Below are positions 15,584 through 61,565 of a stretch of 64,000 bases of DNA, in pieces (position 1 is the stretch's first letter; the number at the start of each line of letters is the position of its first letter). The notes under the pieces were generated by a model, which worked only from the letters and a program-made list of their open reading frames with translations, searched no databases and had not been told where the DNA came from. The stretch is from a virus. The translations under genes and the position numbers were made by a program. The stretch lies in the IMG/VR virus record IMGVR_UViG_3300035698_006348, positions 1 to 64,000 of that record; one strand, 5' to 3'.

Positions 15584-15586
15584 CAT

Positions 15587-18207: not shown

Positions 18208-18225
18208 GAATTATTTGGAGGTACA

Positions 18226-19529: not shown

Positions 19530-19541
19530 AAGGAAAAACAA

Positions 19542-20438: not shown

Positions 20439-20447
20439 GAGAAAATA

Positions 20448-21179
20448 ATGAATTGCAGTTTAAAAATTGTATACAAGGGCTTGGTGGATTGTCCAAGTAA
20501 AAGTTATGGTAACTACTGTGGGAATACTGTCCCATTCTCAAGATTTATGAGGGATATGTCATTCACGTATGATGTGGATTATTCCTGTAGGGAATCACTC
20601 CTATATGGAATCAGGAAGTTTACAAGGATGCTTGATGGCCATAAAGAATTATACGGCACAAGGGATTTTTGGATTTATATCTCCGCAACAGAGTATATTG
20701 CTTCAGTGAAAACAACCAATATGATTGAGGAGTTATTTTCAGCAGATGGATGGGGAGTTAGTGTAGAACGAGATAAAAGCATAGCTAATGGTGTAAAAGT
20801 TAAAATTAATCCATACAAAGGATGGGCTGGGCAATTTTCATACAGTTTTATACTTCTGATGTTATGTTTAGAAGTTAGCACGTTTCCCACAACTCCAGAA
20901 GACCTTATTGCCCATATGCTGAGGATAGATATGGTTATACGGGTTGACTGCTTATTTACAGGCTTTGCATACAGACTGCTAAAGGCCTCTCCGCATTCAA
21001 TCCCAAGAGGTGATTTGGGCCCAAGAATAAATGGTTGCTGTAATGCAATAAAAAATTCACCCCTCAATGTGGATAATTTACGTTGGTACAGAGCAAATAT
21101 CAGAAGTCAGTATAATTTTGATACTGAAATATTATCCAAAATGGGATTAAATATTGGTATTTTTAAATTTAGAGGCTAA
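20448..21179 (+). CDS. Hypothetical protein (SCRES motif family)
   Basis: ORF within the amidoligase cluster. Confidence 0.6.
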   Translation: MNCSLKIVYKGLVDCPSKSYGNYCGNTVPFSRFMRDMSFTYDVDYSCRESLLYGIRKFTRMLDGHKELYGTRDFWIYISATEYIASVKTTNMIEELFSADGWGVSVERDKSIANGVKVKINPYKGWAGQFSYSFILLMLCLEVSTFPTTPEDLIAHMLRIDMVIRVDCLFTGFAYRLLKASPHSIPRGDLGPRINGCCNAIKNSPLNVDNLRWYRANIRSQYNFDTEILSKMGLNIGIFKFRG

Positions 21180-21195
21180 AAAAGGAGTATAAAAA

Positions 21196-21813
21196 ATGAA
21201 AATCGGGATCGCATATCCAACATTGCATACCAACTTCCTAAATACATGGGAAGATGTAAAAGTAATTGAATCACGAGATGATATCGCATGGGCTGATTTA
21301 GTGGTGTTTACTGGTGGAGAAGATATAAGCCCATCCATTTATGGGCATCGAGCTACCTACACAAGTGGAACCAACATGAAAAGAGATAACACGGAAAAAA
21401 ATGTCTTTAATTATGCTTCTAGATTAAATAAACATATGCTTGGTATTTGTAGAGGACACCAACTAATTGCTGGGCTTAAAGGAACTAGACTAGTCCAGGA
21501 CATTAATCAAGAAGAATATAGACATCATGGATATCACCATAACGTTGATTGGGAAGTACCACCGATAGACAGATCATACCCATTTGCAGAAGCTGGAAAA
21601 GAGATTGTGGACTTATACTCAGATGGAGTAAATAGTTTGCATCATCAAGGATACACTGATCCAAGCTTTAGTACATGGGTATTGGGGGTGTTTGGTGAGA
21701 TTGTTGAAGCAACAATTAATAAAAGAATTATAACAACACAGTTTCACCCAGAAATGCTATCCACTTTTAGGTCTTTCTTAGAGATAGTAGAAAGATGGGT
21801 AGAGAGATGCTAA
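21196..21813 (+). CDS. Class I glutamine amidotransferase / peptidase C26 (gamma-glutamyl hydrolase-like)
   Basis: TGGEDISP, GICRG.Q, NSLHHQ and QFHPE motifs. Confidence 0.9.
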   Translation: MKIGIAYPTLHTNFLNTWEDVKVIESRDDIAWADLVVFTGGEDISPSIYGHRATYTSGTNMKRDNTEKNVFNYASRLNKHMLGICRGHQLIAGLKGTRLVQDINQEEYRHHGYHHNVDWEVPPIDRSYPFAEAGKEIVDLYSDGVNSLHHQGYTDPSFSTWVLGVFGEIVEATINKRIITTQFHPEMLSTFRSFLEIVERWVERC

Positions 21814-23934: not shown

Positions 23935-24303
23935 ATGGAGAACAAAATGGTTAAAGAATTACTTACAGAAAAAGAACTAATGGAAAAAGTAAAACAAGCA
24001 AATAATATAATGAAACTTAGATATGATAGTGATGATTTTAGTATGATATGGGTCTTACGTTTTAAGTATAATGGAAATAATGATTACTTTATATATAATG
24101 CAGAGGGAGACTATAATATCTTTATTTCTCCATATTATATATCTATCTCTGGAAATATGGGAGCAATTATGAAGTTTTTTGACAATCATTATGGAAATAT
24201 TTTCCCAAAATTAGAAATAGACTCAGAAACAATGGAAGTTATGTTAGAAGAATGGCGTGGATTTAATAAACTAATGCCTATTATAAGTGGAGAGGATAAA
24301 TAA
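23935..24303 (+). CDS. Hypothetical protein
   Basis: AAGGAG RBS. Confidence 0.55.
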   Translation: MENKMVKELLTEKELMEKVKQANNIMKLRYDSDDFSMIWVLRFKYNGNNDYFIYNAEGDYNIFISPYYISISGNMGAIMKFFDNHYGNIFPKLEIDSETMEVMLEEWRGFNKLMPIISGEDK

Positions 24304-24304
24304 A

Positions 24305-25522
24305 ATGTTAAAAATTTCTGGTAAATATAATGAAGCAGTAGTATATGCAAATGAAGTTGAAGAGACTGCCAAAGACCAAATCATTGAATTGTGTAACCAA
24401 CAATTTACTGCTGGATGGGCTATTAGAATGATGCCAGATTTACATGCTGGTGCTGGATGTGTAATTGGAACAACTATTGATCTGAAAGAGAATAAGAAGA
24501 TTGTACCAAACCTCATTGGGGTAGATATTGGCTGTGGGGTTAGAGTTGTACATCTAGGAAAGGTGGATATTGATTTTGATAAATTAGAAAACTTTATTAG
24601 AACAAATATCCCAACTGGATTTCATGTTAGAAGTAAACCTCATAGGTTATTGGAAGAAACAAGACTACGTGATCTATGCTGTTATTCAGATGTTTACAAG
24701 CCAAAGCATAAATTAGCCATTGGAACTCTCGGAAGTGGCAATCATTTTATTGAGATAGATAAAGATAACCAAGGAAATAAATATTTACTAATCCATACTG
24801 GTAGTAGAAATTTAGGGTTCAGGATAGCTAATTTTTGGCAAAGAAGAGCTATTGAGACCATTGGTATAGCCAAAATTAAATATAGGGAGGATGTAATTGC
24901 CCATGCAAAGAAAACAAATGAAGAAGGTACTATCCAAGATAGACTTAAAGGAAATTTTTTAAGGACACCACCAGAGGCATTGTGTTATCTAGAAGGAGTA
25001 AACTTTGATGGTTACATGATGGATATGAAGGTAGCCCAGGAATATGCAGAGCTAAACAGAAAAGCCATAGCAGAGGTTATCATCGAAGGTATGGGATTTA
25101 CACCTATTCATCAATTCTCATCGGTCCATAACTATATTGAAGATTCAAGAATTATTAGAAAAGGTGCAGTCTCTGCCAAAGAGGGTGAACGGCTAATTAT
25201 CCCAATCAATATGAGGGATGGGGCTTTACTATGTGCTGGTCTTGGGAATAAAGATGCAAACTATTCTGCTCCACACGGGGCTGGTAGACTATATTCACGT
25301 GGTGATGCAAAGAGAAAACTTAGCATGGCTACATATGAAAGTGAGATGTCTGAGGTTTATACAACAAGTGTAACTCCAGAAACTCTTGATGAATGTGCTG
25401 GAGCGTATAAACCAATAGAAGAGATTATTAAAAACATTGATACTCTGGTAACAGTTACTGAACATATAGTACCAGTATACTCACTAAAGGATATCCCAGA
25501 GAAAAGAAGAAGGAGAAGGTAA
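24305..25522 (+). CDS. rtcB: RtcB family RNA ligase
   Basis: MPDLHAG, GVDIGCG, GTLGSGNHF, HTGSR, HNY, RKGA, SAPHGAGR and DE..AYK motifs. Confidence 0.95.
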   Translation: MLKISGKYNEAVVYANEVEETAKDQIIELCNQQFTAGWAIRMMPDLHAGAGCVIGTTIDLKENKKIVPNLIGVDIGCGVRVVHLGKVDIDFDKLENFIRTNIPTGFHVRSKPHRLLEETRLRDLCCYSDVYKPKHKLAIGTLGSGNHFIEIDKDNQGNKYLLIHTGSRNLGFRIANFWQRRAIETIGIAKIKYREDVIAHAKKTNEEGTIQDRLKGNFLRTPPEALCYLEGVNFDGYMMDMKVAQEYAELNRKAIAEVIIEGMGFTPIHQFSSVHNYIEDSRIIRKGAVSAKEGERLIIPINMRDGALLCAGLGNKDANYSAPHGAGRLYSRGDAKRKLSMATYESEMSEVYTTSVTPETLDECAGAYKPIEEIIKNIDTLVTVTEHIVPVYSLKDIPEKRRRRR

Positions 25523-48184: not shown

Positions 48185-48213
48185 TTGACAAATATTGAAA
48201 AGTGTGTTATAAT
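48185..48213 (+). promoter_or_regulatory. Rightward promoter 2
   Basis: TTGACA-17-TATAAT with TG. Confidence 0.8.
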
Positions 48214-48315
48214 AGTACTATAAGTAATTAAGTACTTAAACATTAAATACTTAAAGATTAACCATTAAAAGAAAGTAACTAAGTAATTGCGGAAAAAATC
48301 CGCATGGAGAAAATA

Positions 48316-48785
48316 ATGTCTAAATATAAATGTTCCATCTGTCATAAAGAATTTACAAATGTTTTGATGGCAGATAGTTGTGAAAAGAGTCATGATATTA
48401 TGTATGTTCCATTAACAAAGGCAGATATTCTTCGCTTAATTCAGTTTATTATAACAAAAGATGAGAAATTACTAACTGAATCATTGGTAACAACTTTACA
48501 GAAATATTCATCTACTCTGAATAAATAATAGCCACCATATAGCGTGCACTATAAAAAGAGGTAATCCATGTGAAAGTTATATGTCCTATTTGTGATAAAG
48601 AGATACTAAAGACTGATTCTAAGCAGATTGTAGCTATTGATCGTCCAGATAAGATGAATATATTCTGCCACCTATCATGTATAAATAATACAAATTTGGA
48701 GGAATATCTAAAAGATAATAAAAACTATACTAAATTCCTTTCTATACATACTGCTAGGAAAATAAAAATAAATATGAAAAAATAG
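48316..48785 (+). CDS. Two small Zn-finger proteins (48316-48528 C2H2-like; 48570-48785)
   Basis: YKCSICHKEF...CEKSH; CPIC...HLSC. Confidence 0.55.
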
Positions 48786-48791
48786 TAATAT

Positions 48792-48821
48792 TTGACAAAA
48801 TGTGCACTTTCATGGTATAAT
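48792..48821 (+). promoter_or_regulatory. Sigma70-type promoter for the Cys-rich peptide and tRNA block
   Basis: TTGACA-18-TATAAT with TGG. Confidence 0.7.
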
Positions 48822-48841
48822 TAAGATAGTGGAGAAAATAA

Positions 48842-48970
48842 ATGACAGAAAAAGATGAGGTTGAAGAGGTAGAGGAAGAATGTTGCCCTGAATGTGGATC
48901 CCCATACTATGTAAAAAATGGTAGATGCTCAACATGTTTATCTTGTGGATTTTCTCTATGTGGTATTTAA
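48842..48970 (+). CDS. 42-aa Cys-rich peptide resembling the NrdJ C-terminal Zn/redox tail (not in ORF track)
   Basis: MTEKDEVEEVEEECCPECGSPYYVKNGRCSTCLSCGFSLCGI; GGAG RBS. Confidence 0.65.
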   Translation: MTEKDEVEEVEEECCPECGSPYYVKNGRCSTCLSCGFSLCGI

Positions 48971-49077
48971 AACTATACCGTTTACTTTCATTTGACCAAA
49001 CTTGTAGAGCTTGTGGATCAATTATTACTGGGCATAGAAAATACTGTCCTGTTTGTGGGGCAAGAATCTAATATTAT

Positions 49078-49150
49078 AGGGGCATATTTCAATTGGCAGA
49101 ATACTTGCCTTGGACGCAAGTGGTTGGGGATTCAAATTCCTCTGCCCCTA
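49078..49150 (+). tRNA. tRNA-Pro(TGG)
   Basis: AGGGGCA/TGCCCCT acceptor; CTTGC-CT TGG AC-GCAAG anticodon arm; TTCAAAT T-loop. Confidence 0.8.
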
Positions 49151-49220
49151 CTAGATGCAATAGTTCCTAAAAGCTATAGCTCCCTTTGTAAAGAGTGACA
49201 GCCTGGAGAGACAGGCATAT

Positions 49221-49294
49221 GGACAGGTAGCTCAATTAGGTAGAGCACTAATCTCCAAAATTAGTGGTTCTGGGTTCGATTCCCAGCCTGTGCC
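49221..49294 (+). tRNA. tRNA-Trp(CCA)
   Basis: TAGCTCAATTAGGTAGAGC D-arm; CTAAT-CT CCA AA-ATTAG; GGTTCGATTCC; one acceptor-stem mismatch. Confidence 0.85.
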
Positions 49295-49303
49295 GCTAGA
49301 CAT

Positions 49304-49376
49304 TCCTAGATAGCTCAATTGGTAGAGCGAGCGGCTGTTAACCGCTAGGTTAGTGGTTCGATTCCACTTCTGGGAG
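49304..49376 (+). tRNA. tRNA-Asn(GTT)
   Basis: TCCTAGA/TCTGGGA acceptor; AGCGG-CT GTT AA-CCGCT; GGTTCGATTCC. Confidence 0.92.
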
Positions 49377-49380
49377 CCTT

Positions 49381-49848
49381 ATCTGTATGATCAAAACCTC
49401 GGCCAGAAGCAGTACTGGTCTATACGTAAGTTCTGCGTATAATCAAAAATGCACGGGCAGTATATGGAAGGTCTGCCTCTGTACAGATATAATACTGTAA
49501 TACACTTATGGATCATGCGTTCTTTAACGCTTCTTTTCTGTGACAAATCTCGTATATAGAAAAATACACAGATGCATAATACAGATCATGGAGTATATTA
49601 CAGTAATTCATGCTAACAACATGGCAAAACAGCCTTATGAGTTACTATGTAAGGTGAGGTTAATCAGCAGACCTAAAGATTCGCAGACGTGCGGAAGCTG
49701 AGAAAGTTTGGGTAAGGTATCACATTTGGGTCTAGATTTAGTCTCTGCGTGAGCTTCACTAAATGTGATACTCATTCCCAATTAAGTCCATGTTTTTCAT
49801 GGCAATCCTCCCTGATCTCCAGTCTAATACTGGTGGGAGGAGACTGGT
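49381..49848 (+). ncRNA. Block of putative structured non-coding RNAs
   Basis: No long ORF; several nested closing stems and hairpins (see findings). Confidence 0.5.
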
Positions 49849-49850
49849 AG

Positions 49851-49953
49851 TCAAATATTTGTTGTTACTCGATATACAACTAAAATAAGATCAAGTTCTA
49901 AATGTTTGTTGCTACTTGGTATGCAACTGAAAAAAGGCCAAGTTCAAATATGT
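49851..49953 (+). repeat. 2.2 tandem 46-47-nt repeats, each an H-type pseudoknot with compensatory changes
   Basis: Units at 49851-49896 and 49897-49943, partial unit at 49944-49953. Confidence 0.75.
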
Positions 49954-49967
49954 AAAGGAGCTTTATA

Positions 49968-50420
49968 ATGGATAACGGAAATAATTCTTTTTTTAGTGAG
50001 GTTATAAATTTTGGTGAGCTTAGAGATGAAAATGGTAAACTAGTGTACTCATGGCCATACTCTAAGCGTTGCCCAGATTGTGGGGAAGAAGCAATGGTTG
50101 GAGATAAGTGCACCGCTTGTGGAATTGATAACTATCAGGAGAAATGTCCTAAATGTAGTAAATGGGTAAACAATAGGCAAATAAAGGAGTTTGGACATTG
50201 CACATTCTGTGAAAGGGATATTATTCATAAAAAAAGTAGGGCTACTGCTATTGCATTAGAAAAAATTAGGATTGATACACTTATAGAGGATGTTAAATTA
50301 CTTTCTACACGTGATTTAGTTGAATCATTAGATTTAAGTTTAGATTATATAGACCCAGCTAGTTTAGTGTTTTTAAATGAGCTAAAGGAAAGGATAAAAG
50401 GAGGAAATATTGGCAGATAA
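49968..50420 (+). CDS. Zn-ribbon hypothetical protein
   Basis: Four CxxC pairs; AAGGAG RBS. Confidence 0.65.
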   Translation: MDNGNNSFFSEVINFGELRDENGKLVYSWPYSKRCPDCGEEAMVGDKCTACGIDNYQEKCPKCSKWVNNRQIKEFGHCTFCERDIIHKKSRATAIALEKIRIDTLIEDVKLLSTRDLVESLDLSLDYIDPASLVFLNELKERIKGGNIGR

Positions 50421-51099
50421 GAGAATTACTATTCCAGACAGTAGAAAGCTTAGAAATCTTAGGCAATACAAAGATATGTCTGAAGATGAATTTAATGCAG
50501 TTATGGAAAAGAAACAGAAGAAAGTGTCTGTAAATAATTCGATGGAATCTCGTATTGAGGATAAAATCAATACCCTAGCTGTAGACTATGATTTAGACGA
50601 CCTAAATGCCAATGATATTATGATGCTTAGGGCTTTAGTACAAGCACTTATAAGTCTGGAAGATTATGAGATAGAAATTTATAAACTTAGGGGAGAAGGA
50701 ATTAATATTGGTAATATTGCTGTACTAGAAAAATTATCTAGGGTTTCTTCTGATTTACGTGCAGATATTAGCAAGTTTCAAACAGATTTAAATATAACAA
50801 GAAAATATAGAGCTTCCGATAAAGCAGAGTCAGTTGTAAAGGAATTAGAAACTCTAACGAAAAAAGCAAGAAAATTCTATAAAGAAAAAATGTCTTATGT
50901 TTTATGTCCAGAATGTAATATGTTACTTGCAACAATCTGGGTACACTATCCAGAAGTAAATAATAAACTAACCTTTATCTGTAATAGATTACTTGATGAG
51001 GATGGTAATAGATGTGGACATAAATTTTCTGTTACTACTAAAGAACTAATGGAAAAACATGGTGTGAATGTTGACCATTTTCCAGAGAGTATGAAATGA
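50410..51099 (+). CDS. Hypothetical protein, possibly terminase small subunit-like
   Basis: Helical with C-terminal CPEC..C..C; upstream in the same operon as terL (positional inference). Confidence 0.35.
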   Translation: MADKRITIPDSRKLRNLRQYKDMSEDEFNAVMEKKQKKVSVNNSMESRIEDKINTLAVDYDLDDLNANDIMMLRALVQALISLEDYEIEIYKLRGEGINIGNIAVLEKLSRVSSDLRADISKFQTDLNITRKYRASDKAESVVKELETLTKKARKFYKEKMSYVLCPECNMLLATIWVHYPEVNNKLTFICNRLLDEDGNRCGHKFSVTTKELMEKHGVNVDHFPESMK

Positions 51100-51356
51100 G
51101 TGATTTTATCTTTTTACATATAGGGTATTTTTTCTTTGGAATGATTATTGGTATAGTCCTGGCCTCTTTAAAAAATAAACAAAGTAGGCATTATGTAGTT
51201 AGACCGAAGAAACCAAATAAGCCTCCTAAAGTTCCAGCATATCCACAAGTAGGTAAAAATTGGATATTTTTTAATCCGACTGGTTCCTATGATGATGATC
51301 CATTTGTAGTGCAAGATAAAAGTATAAAGAGGTATAAAATTGGAAAAGGAAAATAA
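51096..51356 (+). CDS. Small membrane protein
   Basis: N-terminal TM helix. Confidence 0.5.
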   Translation: MSDFIFLHIGYFFFGMIIGIVLASLKNKQSRHYVVRPKKPNKPPKVPAYPQVGKNWIFFNPTGSYDDDPFVVQDKSIKRYKIGKGK

Positions 51357-52323
51357 AACAGCAGTAATTACTGGTGTTTATGGGCAAGATGGTAGTTACT
51401 TAGCAGAGTATCTTCTATCACTCAACTACACAGTATATGGAGTATCTAGACCAAAACATACTGGATACATTCCAGAGTATATGTATAAAATATTGGAGCA
51501 TGAGAATTTTAAAAGTGTATCAATTGATGTAATTGATGCTGGGGCTGTATTTGGAATTGTAAATCAGATAAAACCTGATGAGTATTATAATTTGGCTGCT
51601 ATCTCATTTATTCCTATTTCTTGGGATAATCCATCCTTAGTTTTGAATATAAATACAATTGGCACACTAAATGCTTTAGAGGCAATAAGAACTTGTTCAC
51701 CAAATACTAAGTTCTATCAAGCTAGTTCTAGTGAGATGTTTGGAAACTCTAGAGATGTTCCACAACATGAAAATACACCAATGAATCCAGAAAGTCCTTA
51801 TGCAATTTCAAAGGTAACTGGACATAATTATACAAATAACTATAAAGATAGTTATGGAATCTTTGCTGTATCTGGATTAGCATTTAATCATGAGTCTCCA
51901 CGTAGACGGAAGGAGTTTGTTACTAGAAAGATTACAAATGCTGTGGTTAGAATAAAAGCTGGTTTACAAGATAAATTATTTTTAGGGAATATTTCTGCTA
52001 AACGTGATTGGGGTTTTTCAGGGGATTACGTAAAAGCAATGTGGCTTATGCTACAAAATAGTGAGCCAACAGATTTTGTGATTGGAACAGGTATTGATTA
52101 TTCTGTCGAAGATTTCTGTAAAGAAGCCTTTAGCTATGTAAATTTAGACTATACTAAATATGTAGAAATTGACGAAAAGTATATTAGACCTGTAGATGTT
52201 CAACGATTGTTGGCAGACCCCTCTATGATTGAACAACGATTGAATTGGGTGTCTATTATTGGCTTTAGTGATCTTGTTTCTATGATGATGGAGCACGATA
52301 AAAGTTTAGTAGGGTTACATTAG
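51340..52323 (+). CDS. gmd: GDP-mannose 4,6-dehydratase
   Basis: ITG..GQDGSYLAE.LL, YNLAA.S, QASSSEMFG, SPYA.SK, FNHESPRR..EFVTRKI and RDWG motifs. Confidence 0.95.
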   Translation: MEKENKTAVITGVYGQDGSYLAEYLLSLNYTVYGVSRPKHTGYIPEYMYKILEHENFKSVSIDVIDAGAVFGIVNQIKPDEYYNLAAISFIPISWDNPSLVLNINTIGTLNALEAIRTCSPNTKFYQASSSEMFGNSRDVPQHENTPMNPESPYAISKVTGHNYTNNYKDSYGIFAVSGLAFNHESPRRRKEFVTRKITNAVVRIKAGLQDKLFLGNISAKRDWGFSGDYVKAMWLMLQNSEPTDFVIGTGIDYSVEDFCKEAFSYVNLDYTKYVEIDEKYIRPVDVQRLLADPSMIEQRLNWVSIIGFSDLVSMMMEHDKSLVGLH

Positions 52324-52336
52324 AAAGGAAAGGATT

Positions 52337-53242
52337 ATGAAGAACGTATTGCTTATTGCAGGTGGAAGACGAGTTGATCTTGGAAGACGCTTTGAACAAG
52401 CTGGTTATACTCCTATATTTTATGAATTATGTTCTACTGCACCAGTTTCTACTTATTTCAGAACTGTAAAAGGTTTGAAATGGGATGATAAGAAAATTTA
52501 CTGGGATATTGAAGATACAATTAAACGCTTTAATCCAAGTTTTGTATTTCCATTACAGGATGCTGCAATTCCTATCTTGGCTAGAATAAAACAAAGAGGC
52601 TACGATAATATTATTGTATCTGATGAAAAGACTGCTAATATTTGTACTGATAAACAATCTTTTGAAACCTTTATGTTAAGTAATTTTCCGTTTATTTACC
52701 CGTATCCAGAAGTACATAAGAAAATGATTGTGAAACCAAGATTTGGTTATGGATCAAGGGGAATTACAATAGAGGAGTCTCCAGAGCTTATAGTTCAACA
52801 TAATAAAGTATGTCAGAGATTTGTAGAGGGTGTGGAATATTCAGTTGATGCTTATTTTGATAAAAAGAATTCTTATGTAGATTCAGTACCTAGAATAAGA
52901 AATATAATTGGAAGGGGAGAAGTTGTTTCTAGTACTACAAAAGAAAATAAGCTCTTACAGTACTACGTAAAAGAAGTTGGAAGGAAACTTCAATTATATG
53001 GTCCAATTAATTTTCAGTTTATTGTAGGAAAGGGAGCACCAGCCCTAATAGAGATAAATGCTAGGTTTGGTGGTGGGATGACACTCTCTATGGAAGCAGG
53101 ATTAGATATTATTAAGTTACTAGAAATTGATCGTGGATTATCAAAAGAATGTTATAGTGTTGATAAATGGAGGAAAGGCTTAACAGTGGAAAGATCATAT
53201 CAAGACCACTTCTTTACTGAGCCTTGTACTCTAATGGGATAA
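52337..53242 (+). CDS. ATP-grasp protein (CarB-like, glycan-cluster type)
   Basis: GRRV.L, C.DK, KPRFG.GSRG, EYSVD and IEINARFGGG motifs. Confidence 0.85.
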   Translation: MKNVLLIAGGRRVDLGRRFEQAGYTPIFYELCSTAPVSTYFRTVKGLKWDDKKIYWDIEDTIKRFNPSFVFPLQDAAIPILARIKQRGYDNIIVSDEKTANICTDKQSFETFMLSNFPFIYPYPEVHKKMIVKPRFGYGSRGITIEESPELIVQHNKVCQRFVEGVEYSVDAYFDKKNSYVDSVPRIRNIIGRGEVVSSTTKENKLLQYYVKEVGRKLQLYGPINFQFIVGKGAPALIEINARFGGGMTLSMEAGLDIIKLLEIDRGLSKECYSVDKWRKGLTVERSYQDHFFTEPCTLMG

Positions 53243-53256
53243 ACGAAAGGAGTTTT

Positions 53257-53694
53257 ATGTTTACTTATACAGAAAATAGGAAATTAATTGGATATGCTTA
53301 TGTTTGTGGAGATATTCTCCATTATGGGCATGTGCTCCATTTACAAAACTGTAGAGCTTTATGTGATAAGTTAATAGTTGGCGTTCTAACAGATGAAGCT
53401 ATTATGGAAAAGAAACAGAAGCCAATTATCGGATTACGAGATAGAATGGAAATGGTTGAACTACTTCCATATGTAGATATTGTAGTACCACAGAATGATT
53501 ATTCACCTATATATAATATATGTGATATTGGTGTAGATGTTTTATTTGAAAGTACAAGTCATTCAAAAGAAGATTTAAAAGAAACATTTGATATCGCTAA
53601 AAAGAAAGGAATCAAAGTAAGAGTAATGCCTTATTATCCTAATAACAGTTCAACAGAAATAAAGGAGAAAATTAAATCTGAATGGAAGAAGTAA
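53257..53694 (+). CDS. Cytidylyltransferase (HxGH family, TagD-like)
   Basis: DILHYGH, LIVGVLTD, R...V...YVD and SSTEIK motifs. Confidence 0.85.
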   Translation: MFTYTENRKLIGYAYVCGDILHYGHVLHLQNCRALCDKLIVGVLTDEAIMEKKQKPIIGLRDRMEMVELLPYVDIVVPQNDYSPIYNICDIGVDVLFESTSHSKEDLKETFDIAKKKGIKVRVMPYYPNNSSTEIKEKIKSEWKK

Positions 53695-54092
53695 AGAGAG
53701 CAAGTTCAGCACTAAAAAGTATTATCTGGAGAGTTATGGGAGTTATTGTTTTAGCTACCATTACATATCTTGTTACTAGACAATGGATTGTTACCACGTA
53801 TATAACCGTTGTACATCATGCCACATTTCTGTTAGTTTTCTATCTGCATGATAGAGCATGGATGAAGTTTAAAAAAGATATTGGGTACTGGCGAAATGTT
53901 ATTAAAGCCTTTACATACGAAGTTATATTGGGAATGGGTATAGGTGGGTCTATTGTTTATTTATTCACAGGTAGTTGGTCTAGTGTAACACTTATCACAC
54001 CTATTTACACTGTTGTCAAAATAGTTATGTATTTCTTTTACGATAGGATTTGGGATGGAAAAAATAGATCAATTAAGAACATTAGTAAGTAG
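53682..54092 (+). CDS. DUF2061-like membrane protein (duplicated domain)
   Basis: KSIIWR...YLHDRAW and KAFTYE...FFYDRIW. Confidence 0.7.
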   Translation: MEEVKRASSALKSIIWRVMGVIVLATITYLVTRQWIVTTYITVVHHATFLLVFYLHDRAWMKFKKDIGYWRNVIKAFTYEVILGMGIGGSIVYLFTGSWSSVTLITPIYTVVKIVMYFFYDRIWDGKNRSIKNISK

Positions 54093-54597
54093 AACAGCTG
54101 AGTTTCTTATTAAAAATGGCATTGACTATTGGGCAGATTTTGGAACTTTGCTAGGTTTATACAGAGATGATGATATTATCCCGTGGGATACAGATGCTGA
54201 TATTTCTTTAGAAGATATTTGGCTTCCATATTTTATGCATATAAAAGATAAACTTGAGAGAAAGACCGGTTTTATAGTAAAAGGTAGTACAGAAGTTAGG
54301 GTCGTGTTTGAGGAGTCATTTCTAGATTTATATTTTTGGCACTTTGATAAAGATAAAATATTAGGTTACAATATAAATAAAGGATTTGAACATTTTAATA
54401 ATAGACTAGCTGTAGATCGTAATCATATCAATGAACTACCTAAAGTATTTGAATGGAAAAATAAACAGAAAATTCTATTCCCATCTAATCCAGAGGGTAG
54501 ACTTATACAATTATACGGTAAAGATTTTATGAAGCCAGATAAAACAATTAACTATTGGTCTTGGAAGAACTATTATGCTAGGAGTAGAAATAAATGA
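54055..54597 (+). CDS. LicD/fukutin family phosphotransferase
   Basis: YW.DFGTLLG.YR...IIPWD.DADI; P.NP...L.QLYG motifs. Confidence 0.85.
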   Translation: MEKIDQLRTLVSRTAEFLIKNGIDYWADFGTLLGLYRDDDIIPWDTDADISLEDIWLPYFMHIKDKLERKTGFIVKGSTEVRVVFEESFLDLYFWHFDKDKILGYNINKGFEHFNNRLAVDRNHINELPKVFEWKNKQKILFPSNPEGRLIQLYGKDFMKPDKTINYWSWKNYYARSRNK

Positions 54598-54887
54598 GTG
54601 ATACCATTGGAAGTCTTATAGATAAACTAATAACAGTAGATATGAAATTGTGGGATTCTCAAGATAAAGTTTATAAATTACGTAAAATGACAGAGGACGA
54701 ATTTAAAGAATTGTTCACAAACAGTCCTGATGAAATATTGGGATTTTGGAAGATATTAAATAAAGCAACTAATTTAAATGTACAAAGAAATGATTTGATT
54801 GAAGAAATTGACACGTTGCTTGTTGAAATGGGAAAGAGTGGGGCTGATGTTAGCAAATACATACAGAAAGCCCATAAAACTTATTAA
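54594..54887 (+). CDS. DUF4254-like protein
   Basis: TIGSLIDKL...KLW...LN.QRNDLIEEID. Confidence 0.65.
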   Translation: MSDTIGSLIDKLITVDMKLWDSQDKVYKLRKMTEDEFKELFTNSPDEILGFWKILNKATNLNVQRNDLIEEIDTLLVEMGKSGADVSKYIQKAHKTY

Positions 54888-54896
54888 GGAGTTAGT

Positions 54897-55334
54897 ATGA
54901 ATAATGAAACAAATCTCATAGTTTTTGTTAATAATACTCATGAGTTGGCGTTGTATGAAAAATTCTTTAGTGCTTTTGAGCATGTATTTATTCTTGCGAG
55001 TGAATATGTATATTGGCCAGTTGTTAAAAAGTATAAACATAGTAAAGGAAGTATTAGTGTATATGGGTTTGATAATAATATTGATATGGTAACTACAATC
55101 TTTACAGGATATAAATCAAATGCATTTTATGTTATTAGAGAGCATGTTGATGTAGAAATAATTTCAAAGATTAAACAAAGAGGAAATAAGTTAGATAAAT
55201 ACTTATGTTTATATGGTAATAAGGTTTCAGGGTTTACTAAACAAAGTAAAGAAATTAACGGAAAGGAGTTATTTGAATGTATAAAATCAACGTCTACGAA
55301 CCGACAATCTCGGGCGAAGAAATCAAAAAGGTAA
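54897..55334 (+). CDS. Hypothetical protein
   Basis: AGGAG RBS; within the glycan cluster. Confidence 0.55.
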   Translation: MNNETNLIVFVNNTHELALYEKFFSAFEHVFILASEYVYWPVVKKYKHSKGSISVYGFDNNIDMVTTIFTGYKSNAFYVIREHVDVEIISKIKQRGNKLDKYLCLYGNKVSGFTKQSKEINGKELFECIKSTSTNRQSRAKKSKR

Positions 55335-56404
55335 CAGCCGCAATAGATAGAAATGAAATAGCGATTGGCAAAGACTTAGATTTTGTTAGAACAGTTTTAA
55401 CAACTTTAACTAATTCCTCTTTTATTATTCCAGTAAATAGTGGAACAGCCGCTACACATCTTTTAGCAAAAGCTTTACAACTAAGAATGCCAAATAAAAG
55501 AATACGATTGGCAGTACCAAACAATGTTTTTGTAGCCGCTTGGAATAGTTTTTTATACGAAGATATATTTGACTTTTTTGTTGTAGATGCAGACCCATTT
55601 ACTTGGAATATTGATGTAGATCAACTTGTTTCTAATAGAGAAAACTATGACGCTGTGCTAGTTGTACATAATCTAGGTAATATAATAAATGTACCAGAAC
55701 TAAAAAGAATGCTTCCAGATAAGTTATTTGTTGAAGATAACTGTGAGGGATTTGCAGGTATGTACGAAGGATTTTTTACTCCTAGTGCTTCTTTAGCTGG
55801 TTCAATTTCCTTTTATGGGAATAAACTAATTACAAGTGGTGAAGGTGGGGCATTTGCAACAAATGACCCAGAGTTATTTAGAGAGATTCATAAGATTGTT
55901 GGTCAAGGGCAGAGTAATGTTAAGTTTATTCATCAGTGTCTTGGTTACAATTATAGAATGAGTAATTTACAGGCTGCTTTTTTATCTGGGCAACTTAGTA
56001 TTTTACCACAGTCACTTGGTAGAAAGAAAGAAATAATGGCAAGATATTACGAGAATTTAGCAGATACTTTTGGGGAACAACTTGATTATCAGTCACATGC
56101 TAATAAAACCTCGTTTAGCAATTGGATGCTAGGTTTTAGATTTCCAAGGCAGTCTACATATTCAACAGCAAATGCCTTTTTTGATGATAAGGGTATAGAA
56201 ACTAGGCCAATGTTTTATCCAATACATTATCATGGACATTTGAGTCATTTTTATGTGAAGAATACAGTTGCTGAACGACTATCAAGAGAATGTGTTATTT
56301 TTCCATCACATCCAAATATGACAATGAAAGATGTAGATTATGTTTCTGAACATATTATAAAATATATATCTATACTAAATAGCTCAAAGCTTCCAATGAT
56401 ATAA
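55277..56404 (+). CDS. DegT/DnrJ/StrS PLP sugar aminotransferase (perosamine synthase-like)
   Basis: NSGTAA.HL, VH..G, ED.CE, SFYGNKLITSGEGG, GYNYRMSNLQAA and ETRP motifs. Confidence 0.9.
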   Translation: MYKINVYEPTISGEEIKKVTAAIDRNEIAIGKDLDFVRTVLTTLTNSSFIIPVNSGTAATHLLAKALQLRMPNKRIRLAVPNNVFVAAWNSFLYEDIFDFFVVDADPFTWNIDVDQLVSNRENYDAVLVVHNLGNIINVPELKRMLPDKLFVEDNCEGFAGMYEGFFTPSASLAGSISFYGNKLITSGEGGAFATNDPELFREIHKIVGQGQSNVKFIHQCLGYNYRMSNLQAAFLSGQLSILPQSLGRKKEIMARYYENLADTFGEQLDYQSHANKTSFSNWMLGFRFPRQSTYSTANAFFDDKGIETRPMFYPIHYHGHLSHFYVKNTVAERLSRECVIFPSHPNMTMKDVDYVSEHIIKYISILNSSKLPMI

Positions 56405-56417
56405 AGGAACAGGAAAC

Positions 56418-57062
56418 ATGGCAAATATTTATGAGGTCGATTACAAAGTAATTGAAGATGATAGACTAGAAGCTTTACCAAGCATTCTATATGCAAAATA
56501 TAATGATTTAGTACTTGTTAGGAGAAGTATTTTTAACTTCCAAAATAGAGTACTTCCTAAAATTAATAATTCAATTGTATTAGAAATTGGGACAGCCTTT
56601 TTTGATAGTTATAGATCAAATCCTGTTTATAATTTAGTGGAAGATTTTTATGTTGATGTTCCTGTTAAAATGCAAGAACAAGGTAATAAATATATTAGCT
56701 GTGGATTAGATGATGAAATGGAGTTTGATTTTAATATTGATGCCATAGACTTACAATCAGTTATAGCAAATGATTACCTAGATTTTATTCTTGCTTTTGA
56801 TGTGTTTGAGCATTCTAAATATGTCATGGAATTACCTAAAGTCCTGAGCAATATTTTGAAACCAGGGGGTATTCTATTTTTTACTGTTCCATTTTATTGT
56901 AGAAAACATGATAATAAGAATGATTATTGGAGATTTACTGAGTTAGGTATTAGACAATTATTTGGTAAGTATTTTGATTTATATATAGAAAAAGTATTAT
57001 GGAAAGAAAACGATGGGGACACACCAGTACATATTGTAGTAAAGGCAGTAAACAATGTTTAA
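56418..57062 (+). CDS. Class I SAM-dependent methyltransferase
   Basis: VLEIG, VFEH, LKPGG..F.TVPF and DYWRFT..G motifs. Confidence 0.85.
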   Translation: MANIYEVDYKVIEDDRLEALPSILYAKYNDLVLVRRSIFNFQNRVLPKINNSIVLEIGTAFFDSYRSNPVYNLVEDFYVDVPVKMQEQGNKYISCGLDDEMEFDFNIDAIDLQSVIANDYLDFILAFDVFEHSKYVMELPKVLSNILKPGGILFFTVPFYCRKHDNKNDYWRFTELGIRQLFGKYFDLYIEKVLWKENDGDTPVHIVVKAVNNV

Positions 57063-57900
57063 TGTATTAGGATTTTATAATTACTTCGGTAATGGAGATT
57101 TATTTAATTCAAAAGAGTTTGTAAGGGACATTGTTGCTAATGTTCCTGCAAAAGAATATTATTACTTACATTTAAGAGACCCAAAGTTACTATATGATCT
57201 TGAGGGTGTAAAGTATAGTAAACCAAATTATCTATGCCAACCAAATAAACAATTTTACATAGAGAATAATGAATTATATATTAATACATGGATAGGTTTA
57301 GATAGTAAGTATGTCCTACCAGGTATTGGTTGTACACTAAAAAAGAATATAGATTTATATAATATGATTCTTAGTAAAACAGGTGTAAGTTTTAGATTAA
57401 CCAAACCAGCAGAGAATTATGTACCAACAATAGATTTTGATAGCTTATATTCAGTTGATGGATTAATTGGAAATATTCTAATATCAAATGGGCTTGTTTA
57501 TTCTAGTCAAGCAAAGAACTTTGATTTTACACCAATAATAGACAAGCTATCTGATAATTTTCCAAATGAGCACTTTGTGCTAACCTCTCCAACAAATTTA
57601 AAAAAGGAAAATATTTCTTATACAAATGATTTATTTCCATCATTGATTGGAGCAGATTTAAATGAGATAGGCTATCTAAGTACTAGGTCAAAACTAATTA
57701 TAGGGCGGTCTTCTGGACCATATGGTTTTTGTCAAAATAAACATAACCTATATACTAGCCCTAAAGACTTTATATCTTTTTGTTACCATAAAAACTGTGC
57801 TTCATTTGTACATGATATAAAAACAAATGCAACTATTACACACTCTTCTGCAACAGATGCAGAGGCAGTTTATAATGTAATTGCATCACATATAAGGTAA
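57055..57900 (+). CDS. GT-B (GT9-like) glycosyltransferase-like protein
   Basis: GNGD near the N-terminus; DLNEI.YLS....IIGRSSGP. Confidence 0.55.
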   Translation: MFNVLGFYNYFGNGDLFNSKEFVRDIVANVPAKEYYYLHLRDPKLLYDLEGVKYSKPNYLCQPNKQFYIENNELYINTWIGLDSKYVLPGIGCTLKKNIDLYNMILSKTGVSFRLTKPAENYVPTIDFDSLYSVDGLIGNILISNGLVYSSQAKNFDFTPIIDKLSDNFPNEHFVLTSPTNLKKENISYTNDLFPSLIGADLNEIGYLSTRSKLIIGRSSGPYGFCQNKHNLYTSPKDFISFCYHKNCASFVHDIKTNATITHSSATDAEAVYNVIASHIR

Positions 57901-57906
57901 AGGTAT

Positions 57907-58824
57907 ATGAATAAAAAACTTTTAGTAGGAATAGGTACTTTCGGGCTATTGGAATATACAAAACTAGCAATTAAATCAATTAAAGATACAGTAAAGAAAA
58001 CAGACTATGATATATTACTTATAGTTGGTAAGAATGGGGATGTTGAAACAATAAATTATGCAAAGGCAAATGGACTAAAACATATAGTCCATACAACTAA
58101 TAAAGGATTTCCGGCCTCTATAAATGATATGTATGATTATGCTTGGAAAGATAATGCTTATGAATATTTGCTTATTATGGGAAATGATGTTATAGCTTAT
58201 CCATATGCTGTTGATTCAATGGTAGAGGTAGCTGATACCACATTATATGATTGGGTATGCTCAAGAGAATTTAGTGTGCAAGCTCTTGTAAAAGCATTTC
58301 CAGTAACTTCCTCCTATTTTACAGGAAAAGCTTTCAAGTATAAATTTGGAAGTGGCCCATGTTGGGAATACTTTGATAAGTATAAAGAAAAGATTACAGT
58401 TAGCACCTCTGGTATGTCTGATACTCATAACTTAGGGTTATATAAGAAATCAATTTTTGATAAGGTTGGATATATTGATGTAAATTTCTATCCAGCCTAC
58501 TTTGAAGATAATGACTTTGCAAGGCGGTCTATGTTAGCAAATGTGAAATCTTGTACAGTTGATAATGCTTTTTATTTCCATTTCTGGAGTAGAGTTATAA
58601 ACGAAGGCTCTGGAGGATCAACTCCAAAATATTTCTCAAATAATCAGCAGTATTATATACAGAAATGGGGTGGACTCTTTACAAAAGAATTATATGATTT
58701 ACCATTTAATGGAAATGGGCATACCTTAGATGGAGACATATTTTTAAAATCAGAAATAAAAATAACGTCTAGAGAGGATGAACTCAATATAGCTAAATAT
58801 TGGACACATCTTGGGAGTGGTTAA
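57907..58824 (+). CDS. Glycosyltransferase family 2
   Basis: NKGF.ASIN, GYID.NF.PAYFED.DF.RR, F.H.WS and Y..KWG motifs. Confidence 0.85.
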   Translation: MNKKLLVGIGTFGLLEYTKLAIKSIKDTVKKTDYDILLIVGKNGDVETINYAKANGLKHIVHTTNKGFPASINDMYDYAWKDNAYEYLLIMGNDVIAYPYAVDSMVEVADTTLYDWVCSREFSVQALVKAFPVTSSYFTGKAFKYKFGSGPCWEYFDKYKEKITVSTSGMSDTHNLGLYKKSIFDKVGYIDVNFYPAYFEDNDFARRSMLANVKSCTVDNAFYFHFWSRVINEGSGGSTPKYFSNNQQYYIQKWGGLFTKELYDLPFNGNGHTLDGDIFLKSEIKITSREDELNIAKYWTHLGSG

Positions 58825-61565
58825 TGGCACTAATTGAGAATGTGAATCAAGAGGATTTAATTCTTTATGAAATATTAAAGCATCCAGTATTATCTGGTGA
58901 GTTCCTTCAAAACTTAGATAGACTCGAACATGAAGATATTTTTAAGTTTGAGTGGTATCAGGTGGATTTTTTAGCTGATTTTGCTAAGCAAGTGTCTATT
59001 GCTTGTGGAAGGGCTGTTGGGAAGACAGTTAGTCTAACTAATATGACTATATGGTTACTTATAAATAAGATTTTCCCAGAAGATTATATAGTATATACAG
59101 TTCCAAGTAAGGTTCATTTAGATCCAGTTTTTACATCTCTTACTAGAATGTTTAGAAGTAACTCTTTATTAAAGAATTTTTTACAGGCAAAGAAAGGGAT
59201 AAATGGTTCTGATTTTACAATAAACCTTTTAAATGGCACAACACTAATGTGTCGTATAGCTGGCCAATCTGGAACTGGGGCTAATGTTATTGGTTTACAT
59301 ACACCATTTATAATTCTTGATGAGTGTATTGTTGGTACTCAGCATGTTGCTATGCCAACTTGTAATAAAACAGCAGATAATGTAAAAGTTGGAGATTCCA
59401 TATTATCATGGAATGGTGAATCTATTGAAGAGGATAGAGTTATAAATGTTCGCCGTACCAAAAGAGAGCAAAAAGTTTTAGAGGTTGTATATGATTCTGG
59501 GAAAATTAGAGTAGGAGAAAATCATAAAATATATACAGATAATGGATATGTTAAAGCCTCAGAGTTAGTAGTAGGTGATAATATATACTATACTGAAACT
59601 ACTAGAAGTAATCTGCCATGGACGAAGAAAGATTATAAAATTTTGGAAAAGAATGTTCAAGTTGGAATTCGTGTAAAAGAAGTAGCAAAAATACTAAATC
59701 GTTCTGAGCAGTCTGTTTTTAGTAAAATAGAGAAAAAATATACTTCTACCCACAATTTATTTTATTCTAAGCCCCTAACAGAAAAGCAATTAGATATAAT
59801 TAGGGGATCATTATTAGGAGATGGGTCTACAGCAATATACACAAAAACTGCATCATACTCTACTAATCATAGTTTAAAACAAAAAGAGTACGTTGATTGG
59901 TTATATACTGAATTGAAATCAATTACTAGATGTAAACCACGAATTTATAAAAATGGTGGCTATGGTGAATATAACTATGCCTTTTCAACGCTAGGTCATC
60001 CAGAGATTTTTGATATTGTTTCAAAATTATACATAAATGGTAAAAAGACAGTTACACGAGAGTATTTAGATAAATTATCAAAATTAGCATTGGCTGTATG
60101 GTGGATGGATGATGGATCAAATAGTGGTGTATTGTCTTCACATTCTTTCTCAAAAGAAGAAAATGAAATTGTAATTGAGTGGATGAAGGATACTTTTTCA
60201 ATAAATTGTAAATTATATAAAGATAAAAAAAGAAACTTATATTTTATAATATTTCCTGCAAAATCTAAAAGAGAACTAAATAAGCTTTTAGCCCCCTATA
60301 TGCATAAGGCTATGAAATATAAAGTAGGTATAGGGAAATATAATAATGAATATACCTTACCAAATATTGAACTTATTGGTAAAGGCGAAGATAATAAATC
60401 ATTAGTAAAAAAAGTAGTACTTAATATTAGAGAGGTAAATACAAGGGCTGCTTATCTTTATAACTTTGAAGTTGAAAAGAATCATAACTATTTTGTAAAT
60501 GGTATTCTTACTAAAAATTCTGGTTACTACCCCTGGGGCACATGGTTAGAGTTACAACCAACACGTAATACTTGGACACCTGGAAGTAGGATTATTACAT
60601 CAGGAGTTCCAACAGGTTTACGGGAATCAAATGTTCTGTATAATACAGACATGGTAGATGGGGGATATATGAAACATAGAATAAGTGCATATGATAACCC
60701 ACGATTTACAAAAGAAGACGAAGAAAATGCCATAGCTCAATATGGTGGAAAAGATGGTGAGGATTTTACTCACTTTATTATGGGTAGGCATGGTAAACCA
60801 TTATATTCATTATTTGACAGATCCTTATTTAAGGTTGAACCCTATCCAGTATACAAACTGAAGATAAATGGTCTAAAAATGACAGGGGATATTGCTGAGT
60901 ATCTTACAAGAATAAGAACAATTCCAAATACTGATGAAGGTGTTGAAACAATTATTGGAATTGACTTAGGTTATACTGAACCGACAGCTATTGTTGTAAT
61001 GTATAAAAATAAGAAAGGCAGATTTAAATTTCATTGTAGAATAGAATTGAAGAAAGTTCCATATCCTATACAAGAGATTATAATAGATTTACTAGATACA
61101 AAGTTTGCTCCTTTTAAAATAGGAATTGATAAAGGTAGTTCAGGTATTTCAGTAATCCAGAACCTAACTAGTAATTTAAAATATGGTCATAAAAATTATG
61201 AAGATATTATTGTACCAGTTGATTTCTCATCTTCAATAGTAATTGGTTTAGATGCAGATGGTGCAGAAATAAAATCAAAGACAAAGCCATTCTCTACTTC
61301 AATTTTACAAGATTACTCAAATAATCATAAAATAGTTTATTCGTCAACAGATTTGGAAATGATAACTGAACTTGAACGAATGTCATATACTAAAACCCCA
61401 TCTGGTGATATTGTATATAAAACTTTAACCCAAAGAGGTGGGACACGGGGAGAAGATCACTTTACTGCTGCTATGCTTTGTTTTTCATTATCAAATTATT
61501 TGTATACAGATTATATAAATATGCGAAGAACTAGAAAATTAGCAGCCCCAACATGGATACGTTAA
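58824..61565 (+). CDS. terL: Terminase large subunit, intein-containing
   Basis: GRAVGKT Walker A, ILDE Walker B, SGVP.G, nuclease GIDLG/GID and D-H motifs; followed by the portal gene. Confidence 0.85.
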   Translation: MALIENVNQEDLILYEILKHPVLSGEFLQNLDRLEHEDIFKFEWYQVDFLADFAKQVSIACGRAVGKTVSLTNMTIWLLINKIFPEDYIVYTVPSKVHLDPVFTSLTRMFRSNSLLKNFLQAKKGINGSDFTINLLNGTTLMCRIAGQSGTGANVIGLHTPFIILDECIVGTQHVAMPTCNKTADNVKVGDSILSWNGESIEEDRVINVRRTKREQKVLEVVYDSGKIRVGENHKIYTDNGYVKASELVVGDNIYYTETTRSNLPWTKKDYKILEKNVQVGIRVKEVAKILNRSEQSVFSKIEKKYTSTHNLFYSKPLTEKQLDIIRGSLLGDGSTAIYTKTASYSTNHSLKQKEYVDWLYTELKSITRCKPRIYKNGGYGEYNYAFSTLGHPEIFDIVSKLYINGKKTVTREYLDKLSKLALAVWWMDDGSNSGVLSSHSFSKEENEIVIEWMKDTFSINCKLYKDKKRNLYFIIFPAKSKRELNKLLAPYMHKAMKYKVGIGKYNNEYTLPNIELIGKGEDNKSLVKKVVLNIREVNTRAAYLYNFEVEKNHNYFVNGILTKNSGYYPWGTWLELQPTRNTWTPGSRIITSGVPTGLRESNVLYNTDMVDGGYMKHRISAYDNPRFTKEDEENAIAQYGGKDGEDFTHFIMGRHGKPLYSLFDRSLFKVEPYPVYKLKINGLKMTGDIAEYLTRIRTIPNTDEGVETIIGIDLGYTEPTAIVVMYKNKKGRFKFHCRIELKKVPYPIQEIIIDLLDTKFAPFKIGIDKGSSGISVIQNLTSNLKYGHKNYEDIIVPVDFSSSIVIGLDADGAEIKSKTKPFSTSILQDYSNNHKIVYSSTDLEMITELERMSYTKTPSGDIVYKTLTQRGGTRGEDHFTAAMLCFSLSNYLYTDYINMRRTRKLAAPTWIR
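59325..60518 (+). mobile_element. Intein with LAGLIDADG homing endonuclease (398 aa) in terL
   Basis: Starts CIVG right after ILDE; GSLLGDG and WWMDDG motifs; ends YNFEV..NHNYFVNGILTKN|S. Confidence 0.9.

Follow-up and report, generated by a model that had tools for sequence, protein, structure and literature searches.

In CptIN-family toxin-antitoxin systems, which are of type III, the endoribonuclease CptN processes a precursor RNA made of repeats and is then held inactive by the processed pseudoknots, as described in two reports (PMC4627078, PMC3475682). The crystallised CptI antitoxin of E. rectale (PDB 4RMO; Rao et al. 2015, PMC4627078) folds into an H-type pseudoknot of 45 nt, in which a first stem (S1) is followed by a one-base loop (L1), a second stem (S2), and a 9-nt A-rich loop (L2, A27-G35); the last base of each unit is a scissile A that bears a 2',3'-cyclic phosphate. 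One such unit suffices for antitoxicity, and two single mutations in L2 each abolish it (PMC4627078). Mimicry of a type III antitoxin by a phage has been described in the ToxIN family: Pectobacterium phage ΦTE carries pseudo-ToxI, a non-coding repeat resembling the antitoxin of the host in the absence of the toxin gene, which was proposed to suppress abortive infection by RNA mimicry and with which the phage escapes ToxIN (Blower et al. 2012, PMC3475682). Here, we analysed a stretch of 64,000 nt of viral DNA, positions 1 to 64,000 of the IMG/VR virus record IMGVR_UViG_3300035698_006348 (hereafter the window), which carries on its plus strand, around 49851-49953, a short tandem array of repeat units. 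On sequence comparison, this array is homologous to CptI. We propose, with a probability of about 0.68, that it acts by analogy with pseudo-ToxI of ΦTE, as an early-transcribed RNA decoy that would keep the CptN of the host inactive.

The likeness between the array and the published description of CptI (PMC4627078) involves several traits. First, both are made of tandem units of ~45-47 nt, two of them complete and followed by a partial third. Second, the units of both have the layout of an H-type pseudoknot in which S1 measures 5 bp, L1 is a single base, and S2 is accompanied by an A-rich L2 of 9 nt whose last base is G. Third, the A-rich junctions of CptI, which are single-stranded and hold a scissile A, have counterparts in the array that are predicted cleavage sites. 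Unlike cptIN loci, the window lacks cptN, a dedicated promoter, and a terminator after the array, which lies in a complete phage genome downstream of a cluster of transfer RNA (tRNA) genes. The comparison with ΦTE shows a phage non-coding repeat that resembles a host type III antitoxin and lacks the toxin gene in both cases, whereas the toxin family differs, being CptIN in the window and ToxIN in ΦTE. Wild-type ΦTE has 1.5 repeats and no complete unit, and to escape it needed its repeats to be expanded to 4.5-5.5 in the laboratory or to recombine with toxI (PMC3475682); the window, in contrast, has two complete units with three junction motifs in a natural genome, and in the setting of a tRNA cluster. 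The array has three traits expected of a phage antitoxin mimic: location in a phage genome, absence of the toxin, and similarity to a host antitoxin. Pseudo-ToxI of ΦTE was the sole phage mimic of a type III antitoxin RNA that we found in the searchable literature, and no description of a phage-borne CptI was found there, including in the accessible parts of PMC12283969, PMC5086642, and PMC13682666 (subscription journals and supplementary files lie outside this coverage).

The homology to CptI was established through loci that have retained the toxin. A 29-nt degenerate pattern derived from both units of the window has an exact match in two other viral contigs. The viral contig L036 carries two units and a partial third, then a terminator hairpin, and then an open reading frame (ORF) of 180 amino acids (aa). 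The protein reaches 200.8 bits against NCBIfam NF047359 (type III toxin-antitoxin system CptIN family toxin, equivalog; cut-off 90) and had no match in Pfam and PADLOC. It matches the CptN chain of PDB 4RMO at E 2.6e-20, i.e., the toxin subfamily that the window resembles is only distantly related to the crystallised CptN. There are 779 database relatives of this toxin at E <=1e-5, several of which are named CptIN family toxin in records of Clostridium, Bacillus, Roseburia, and Lachnospiraceae. A search of bacterial genomes with a single CptN protein found nothing, whereas an alignment of 26 CptN relatives recovered bacterial cptN loci, and we retained the best 80 of 156 relatives. In 76 of these 80 Bacillota loci, exactly two units were found upstream of the toxin (E <=1e-5), spaced by 46 nt in 72 of the 76. 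Three of the other four loci had one unit above the threshold, and one was cut by the end of the contig. The layout of the 260 nt before the toxin start is nearly uniform: a consensus promoter, a short leader hairpin, unit 1, unit 2, a partial TCAAATG, a terminator hairpin, a ribosome-binding site (RBS), and the ATG of the toxin. We then compared a profile of 128 distinct units, from which the window and the toxin-less viral loci L035, L123, L124, and L128 were excluded, with the whole genome of 86,463 nt to which the window belongs. It found both units, with E-values of 1.4e-14 (unit 2) and 2.6e-11 (unit 1), the third-best match being at E 0.73. Since a profile built without the window finds both units, the array belongs to the repeat family of CptI, the antitoxin RNA in CptIN systems of type III.

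An earlier note on this DNA, made from the sequence alone, had pointed to a resemblance with type III antitoxins; the profile matches and the presence of the same units before cptN bear this out and specify the family. The same note proposed a check against Rfam: between 48500 and 50500, no family matches the repeat at E <=10, and the search returned only three tRNAs and two weak chance matches. The search for cptN genes accompanied by similar repeats, which it also proposed for predicted hosts, succeeded in bacteria at large, in the 76 loci described above, and did not retrieve the cognate locus of a host. A search of a collection of phage GenBank records matched only the tRNAs. Of 401 genomes sampled from the phylum, 8 contain a CptN that exceeds the NF047359 cut-off, a sporadic distribution that fits an accessory system. 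Published cptI repeats are described as near-identical. In the bacterial loci analysed here the two units differ in a systematic manner: at the third pair of S1, 57 of the 76 loci have U-A in the first unit and C-G in the second, and unit 2 is one base longer in 37. Both units of the window are of the unit 1 type, an arrangement shared by five of the 76 loci. The cptIN locus of L036, the nearest canonical one to the units of the window, adjoins a phage antirepressor gene (ANT/KilAC and ORF6N; 1938-2789, minus strand), and some CptIN systems may be prophage-borne and act in phage-phage competition.

The structure of the units was studied in an alignment of 134 distinct units, obtained from 183 at E <=1e-5 after removal of four duplicate loci, with a mean column identity of 85%. 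The proposed pseudoknot is paired in 96.3% of the cells (99.9% in S1, 93.8% in S2), and changes on both sides were observed in 8 of the 12 pairs, for a total of 105 cells. The covariation score is 0.239, to be compared with a mean of 0.145 in shuffled alignments (standard deviation 0.005), and none of 500 shuffles scored as high. Shifting the 3' strand out of register by 1-3 columns lowers the paired cells to 18-36%. An H-type pseudoknot with an A-rich L2 is thus supported by the covariation of both stems, in line with the selected pseudoknot that the earlier note had read in the array and with the covariation that it expected among homologues. The ordinary minimum-free-energy (MFE) fold of the array is not unusually stable (z -0.47), which is uninformative because nested folding cannot model pseudoknots, and the structural support consequently comes from covariation rather than from folding energy. 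Tandem Repeats Finder recovers the repeat at 49851-49951 (period 47, 2.2 copies, 78% matches, score 130), matching the 2.2 copies initially counted, and the compensatory differences claimed between unit 1 and unit 2 can be read in both stems of the sequence. The two stems initially drawn were retained in part: S1 and six pairs of S2 are present in the family, whereas a seventh, outermost S2 pair (A49867/T49896 in unit 1) is unpaired in 43 of the 134 units and corresponds to the single-base L1 of the solved CptI structure. In our alignment by eye, the repeat encoded in a primer of Table 2 of PMC4627078 coincides with the family in stems, loop lengths, and junction.

The junction motif is conserved as well, to at least 90% at either end of the 134 aligned units. 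It is present at all three junctions of the array, the second of which has a one-base insertion seen nowhere else. When the family is aligned with the processed E. rectale CptI, whose last base is an A with a 2',3'-cyclic phosphate, a cut is predicted after the first A of the AAAT motif; this alignment was made by eye and is not the output of a tool. Both units of the window keep all 11 invariant columns of the family, and every other base is found in at least five other units, except the inserted T of junction 2 and its neighbouring column. Unit 1 has four differences in 50 columns with unit 1 of L074, from Hungatella hathewayi. Between unit 2 and its closest bacterial counterparts, 5 of 50 columns differ, and four of these changes form two compensatory S2 pairs.

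No toxin accompanies the array. The record to which the window belongs has 86,463 nt, carries direct terminal repeats, and is rated complete; six-frame searches of this complete genome with NF047359, the CptN alignment, and the Pfam ToxN family PF13958 gave no cptN or toxN match at E <=10, as was anticipated when the locus was first described as lacking a toxin. Where a cptIN locus by definition has cptN, directly after the array, lies ORF 49968, whose Shine-Dalgarno motif AAGGAG begins 5 nt after the array. As first noticed, its product resembles zinc ribbons and neither CptN nor ToxN: its matches to Pfam zinc ribbons are all sub-threshold, its leads in the Atlas are zinc-ribbon clusters only, and it has no match in PADLOC or PHROG and no relatives among viral contigs. 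The layout initially proposed, with the tRNAs on the same strand as the array and no terminator before the next ORF, also stands, since the sequence from the array to ORF 49968 yielded no terminator-like site. The array further lacks the flanks typical of cptIN, i.e., there is no plus-strand promoter-like site at 49531-49850 and no terminator-like site after the array.

Toxin-less units are not restricted to the window. Four scans of viral contigs identified 22 contigs, of which 12 are canonical loci with cptN, eight are toxin-less, and the remaining two, L131 and L174, were discounted as fortuitous matches to the pattern. The toxin-less eight have no cptN within 1.5 kb of the units nor anywhere in the record, and two of these records, of 172.9 and 122.3 kb, represent complete genomes that have terminal repeats. 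Since L145 does not differ from L147 over 3,028 nt, this leaves seven distinct toxin-less viral contexts beside the window. Their flanks show no similarity among themselves or to the window beyond the unit, which suggests independent acquisitions, and S1 and S2 are, in our reading of the sequences, fully paired in all seven. One of them, L123, has retained the bacterial promoter, the leader hairpin, and a degenerate terminator. In this viral contig of 144 kb we also observed, at about 1590-1860, at least four tandem copies of ~40 nt directly after the unit and the degenerate terminator. A tRNA gene lies within 500 nt on the same strand in five of the eight contexts (window counted): tRNA-Pro starts ~12 nt after the unit in L124, the unit abuts the 3' end of tRNA-Thr in L128, tRNA-Thr lies ~455 nt downstream in L145/L147, and the unit stands between tRNA-Tyr and tRNA-Trp in L158. 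The four larger records that were checked (105-173 kb) have only 2-8 tRNA matches each. It is possible, at somewhat less than even odds, that toxin-less CptI units form a recurrent and independently acquired class of RNA anti-defence elements in phages of Bacillota, typically placed in tRNA clusters. If so, these clusters could provide strong transcription and a release of the units by tRNA-processing enzymes as well as by CptN.

These observations suggest a scenario in which 1) the array would derive from a cptIN locus, either bacterial or of a prophage, whose toxin gene, promoter, and terminator were left behind in the capture; 2) it would be transcribed early by the RNA polymerase of the host, in a rightward transcript shared with the three phage tRNAs; 3) host CptN would cut the precursor at the three A-rich junctions; 4) the products, two pseudoknot RNAs spanning 49854-49900 and 49901-49946, would stay bound to the toxin in an inactive protein-RNA complex; and 5) CptN would remain inhibited once infection depletes the labile antitoxin of the host, so that abortive infection would fail and the phage cycle be completed. 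The place of the array in a tRNA transcript might, more speculatively, ensure high expression and an alternative release by tRNA-processing enzymes. The homology, the conserved pseudoknot and junction motifs, the absent toxin gene, and the recurrence of toxin-less units in unrelated phages are observed in the sequences; we infer the transcription of the array, its cleavage and binding by CptN, and the benefit for the phage. The neutralisation of an abortive-infection toxin of the host, also proposed in the earlier note, is backed indirectly by the independent toxin-less copies in the seven other viral contexts (eight contigs). Co-transcription with the tRNAs is plausible because two 12/12 promoters lie upstream and only one weak terminator-like site intervenes, and the promoter at 48792 is the likely source of the transcript.

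A number of points weigh against a decoy. First, none of six non-cognate CptI pairs gave rescue, with toxins 35-44% identical (PMC4627078), and no cptIN locus with the S2 variant of unit 2 (CTTGGT/GCCAAG) was found in viral contigs or metagenomes, a metagenome scan for CTTGRT variants giving six loci of which none has the exact variant; the cognate locus of a host was not identified. The toxins of the subfamily are 58-65% identical to that of L036, and at this identity, with units 85% identical, cross-reaction within the subfamily is conceivable. Second, the two experimentally tested CptIN systems gave E. coli no protection from the coliphages tried. Third, the intervening site just mentioned is a weak hairpin (49517-49530) that resembles a terminator and separates the tRNAs from the array, no other of its kind being present from the promoters to the array; in addition, no run recorded as RNA contains the array region. 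Fourth, S2 of unit 1 has at its centre a C.A mismatch that is the sole unpaired cell at pair 21-45 among the 134 units, and the base inserted in junction 2 is found in none of the 132 other units at that column; either could impair folding or cleavage. Fifth, the array is identical in contigs of four sequencing runs, which provides no variation within the lineage for a test of selection. Finally, toxin-less units in metagenomes look like decay products of bacterial loci: L137 and L140 keep a promoter, one unit, a terminator, and a truncated toxin start, and L135 and L139 have two degraded units.

The last three points can be put forward for the array being a neutral relic, i.e., if part of a cptIN locus had been picked up by recombination in the phage or its ancestor and its units were decaying passengers. 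This is the best placed of the alternatives, and still an unlikely one. Against it, unit 2 is set apart from its closest relatives chiefly by two S2 pairs that are fully compensated, and the invariant positions of the family are all kept in both units. The promoter, leader hairpin, terminator, and toxin are all gone, unlike in the metagenome relics. Moreover, both stems are kept in the seven other distinct viral units, despite their unrelated flanks, and a position beside tRNA genes in five of eight contexts is unexpected of random debris.

It seems improbable, more so than a relic, that the array acts in cis, either as a processing or stability module between the tRNA/non-coding part of the transcript and the mRNA, possibly cut by host CptN or another RNase, or as a translational operator of ORF 49968. 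The proximity of the array to the Shine-Dalgarno motif without an intervening terminator would suit such a role, as would L142, which shares the succession of unit, RBS, and ORF, and the units that abut tRNA genes in L124 and L128. Yet, what follows the units is different in each toxin-less context, whether non-coding DNA, a tRNA, or an ORF of another kind, the units are homologous to an RNA known to bind and inhibit CptN, and an operator needs no intact CptN junction motifs flanking each unit. The operator, which had been put forward at the outset as the alternative for ORF 49968, is itself unlikely because no other toxin-less locus encodes a relative of this ORF. There is very little to recommend a third explanation, in which each unit would hold a weak sigma-A promoter (TTGTTG, 16 nt, TAAAAT or TGAAAA), the pair driving ORF 49968: the hexamers can be read in the sequence, but neither unit is listed in the promoter scan (threshold 9/12), the same sequence in bacteria sits downstream of a real promoter and is transcribed as RNA, and covariation preserves base pairing and not hexamers. 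Least credible is a new toxin-antitoxin pair in which the CptI-like array would neutralise the downstream zinc-ribbon protein instead of CptN, because the repeat-then-ORF order recalls a type III locus but no terminator separates the two, ORF 49968 is dissimilar to CptN and ToxN and double zinc ribbon-like, and it is absent beside the other toxin-less units and has no viral relatives.

A decoy of CptN would be the second case of RNA antitoxin mimicry, in the form of a ready-made two-unit mimic, directed at a second toxin family and present in a natural complete phage genome, with the same toxin-less arrangement in at least seven other unrelated viral contexts. That phages carry CptI argues for an anti-phage action of CptIN in nature, despite the lack of protection in the tests. 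Should the broader class of toxin-less units be confirmed, this would be the first natural evidence of CptIN as an abortive-infection system that phages must disarm. The decoy, the phage tRNAs, and an RtcB RNA ligase encoded in the same genome might then constitute a kit against RNA-cutting defences, the RtcB part of which concerns this phage alone. RNA anti-CRISPRs offer a parallel: they are solitary CRISPR repeats of phages that serve as decoys for Cas proteins, the phage having the RNA partner without the protein, in another defence system and with another RNA. In practice, a rule for annotation follows, namely to look for CptI-like units next to the tRNA genes of phages, and the decoy reading is open to the standard kill/rescue assay.

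The coordinates of the array and of the elements around it are given in Table 1. The spacer between the tRNAs and the array has a fold with z -4.32 (0 of 100 shuffles as stable) and a G+C content of 37-45%, against 25-30% nearby. It includes an 11-bp inverted repeat (about 49728-49738 with 49760-49770), has no Rfam match (E <=10) and no similarity to the fetched loci or the rest of the genome, and may be an undescribed phage non-coding RNA. At its end, a stem-loop occupies the position of the leader hairpin of bacterial cptIN loci, to which it is unrelated.

Table 1. Position of the repeat array, its predicted products, and associated features in the window
Feature	Position	Strand	Remarks
RtcB RNA ligase gene	24287..25519	+	PHROG 1075 E 4e-118; Pfam PF01139 176.6 bits
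Second consensus promoter	48185-48213	+	12/12, sigma-70-type
Nearest consensus promoter	48792..48821	+	TTGACA, 18 nt, TG-TATAAT; 12/12, sigma-70-type
tRNA cluster (Pro-tgg, Trp-cca, Asn-gtt)	49078..49378	+	ARAGORN; Rfam tRNA 60-69 bits
Non-coding spacer, tRNA-Asn to array	49379..49850	+	472 nt; strongly structured, G+C-richer than surroundings
Leader stem-loop	49806..49841	+	MFE fold of 49379-49850; stable, 9 nt upstream of array
Junction 1 (TCAAAT)	49851..49856	+	Predicted CptN cleavage motif, 5' end of unit 1; scissile A = 49853
Unit 1	49854..49900	+	Predicted 47-nt processed pseudoknot RNA
Unit 1, S1	49861-49865 / 49876-49880	+	GTTGT / ACAAC
Unit 1, S2	49868-49873 / 49890-49895	+	CTCGAT / ATCAAG; single C.A mismatch C49870/A49893
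Unit 1, L2	49881-49889	+	A-rich, 9 nt
Junction 2 (TCTAAAT)	49897..49903	+	Predicted cleavage motif between units; one-base T insertion relative to family consensus TCAAAT
Unit 2	49901..49946	+	Predicted 46-nt processed pseudoknot RNA
Unit 2, S1	49908-49912 / 49923-49927	+	GTTGC / GCAAC
Unit 2, S2	49915-49920 / 49937-49942	+	CTTGGT / GCCAAG; all positions paired
Unit 2, L2	49928-49936	+	A-rich
Junction 3 and partial third unit (TCAAATATGT)	49944..49953	+	Predicted 3' cleavage motif; would free unit 2
ORF 49968	49968..50420	+	150 aa; cysteine-rich, double zinc-ribbon-like; RBS AAGGAG 49955-49960

The genome encodes a family A DNA polymerase, RecA, a DnaB-type helicase, a primase, a ribonucleotide reductase, a terminase, and a portal protein. 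The array lies just to the right of a divergent promoter region, from which the replication genes extend leftward. Rightward run small ORFs of the zinc-finger kind together with the tRNAs and the array, and, further along, the genes for the terminase and the portal protein. Relatives of the DNA polymerase were found in 33 loci, with an identity of at most 27-39%, too distant for a syntenic array. The RtcB family seals breaks with 2',3'-cyclic-phosphate and 5'-OH ends, the type of end left by CptN-type RNases. The ligase of this phage may serve RNA repair against host ribonuclease defences, possibly including CptN; we count it as context only, because none of the five other records bearing toxin-less units contains RtcB.

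Nine DNA sequencing runs contain the region, all labelled salt lake metagenome. A few short contigs from two of these runs match only unit 2 (49900-49950), with 4 differences and unlike flanks, and may represent further CptI-like units, from a host or from other phages. Small cysteine-rich (CxxC) ORFs without family assignment flank the tRNA and array region (48304-49071 and 49968-51099). A cluster at 14474-21810 with PHROG matches to amidoligase, glutamine amidotransferase, COOH-NH2 ligase, and RimK-like ATP-grasp proteins resembles a peptide- or amide-ligation module. After the array, on the same strand, sugar-nucleotide genes at 51340-58821 (epimerase/dehydratase, ATP-grasp, cytidylyl/adenylyltransferase, aminotransferase, and glycosyltransferase) may serve glycan or DNA modification. 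The ORF of 921 aa at 58800-61562 has terminase large subunit and helicase-like matches at its ends and a LAGLIDADG homing-endonuclease match at residues 326-510, an interruption that suggests an intein in the terminase.

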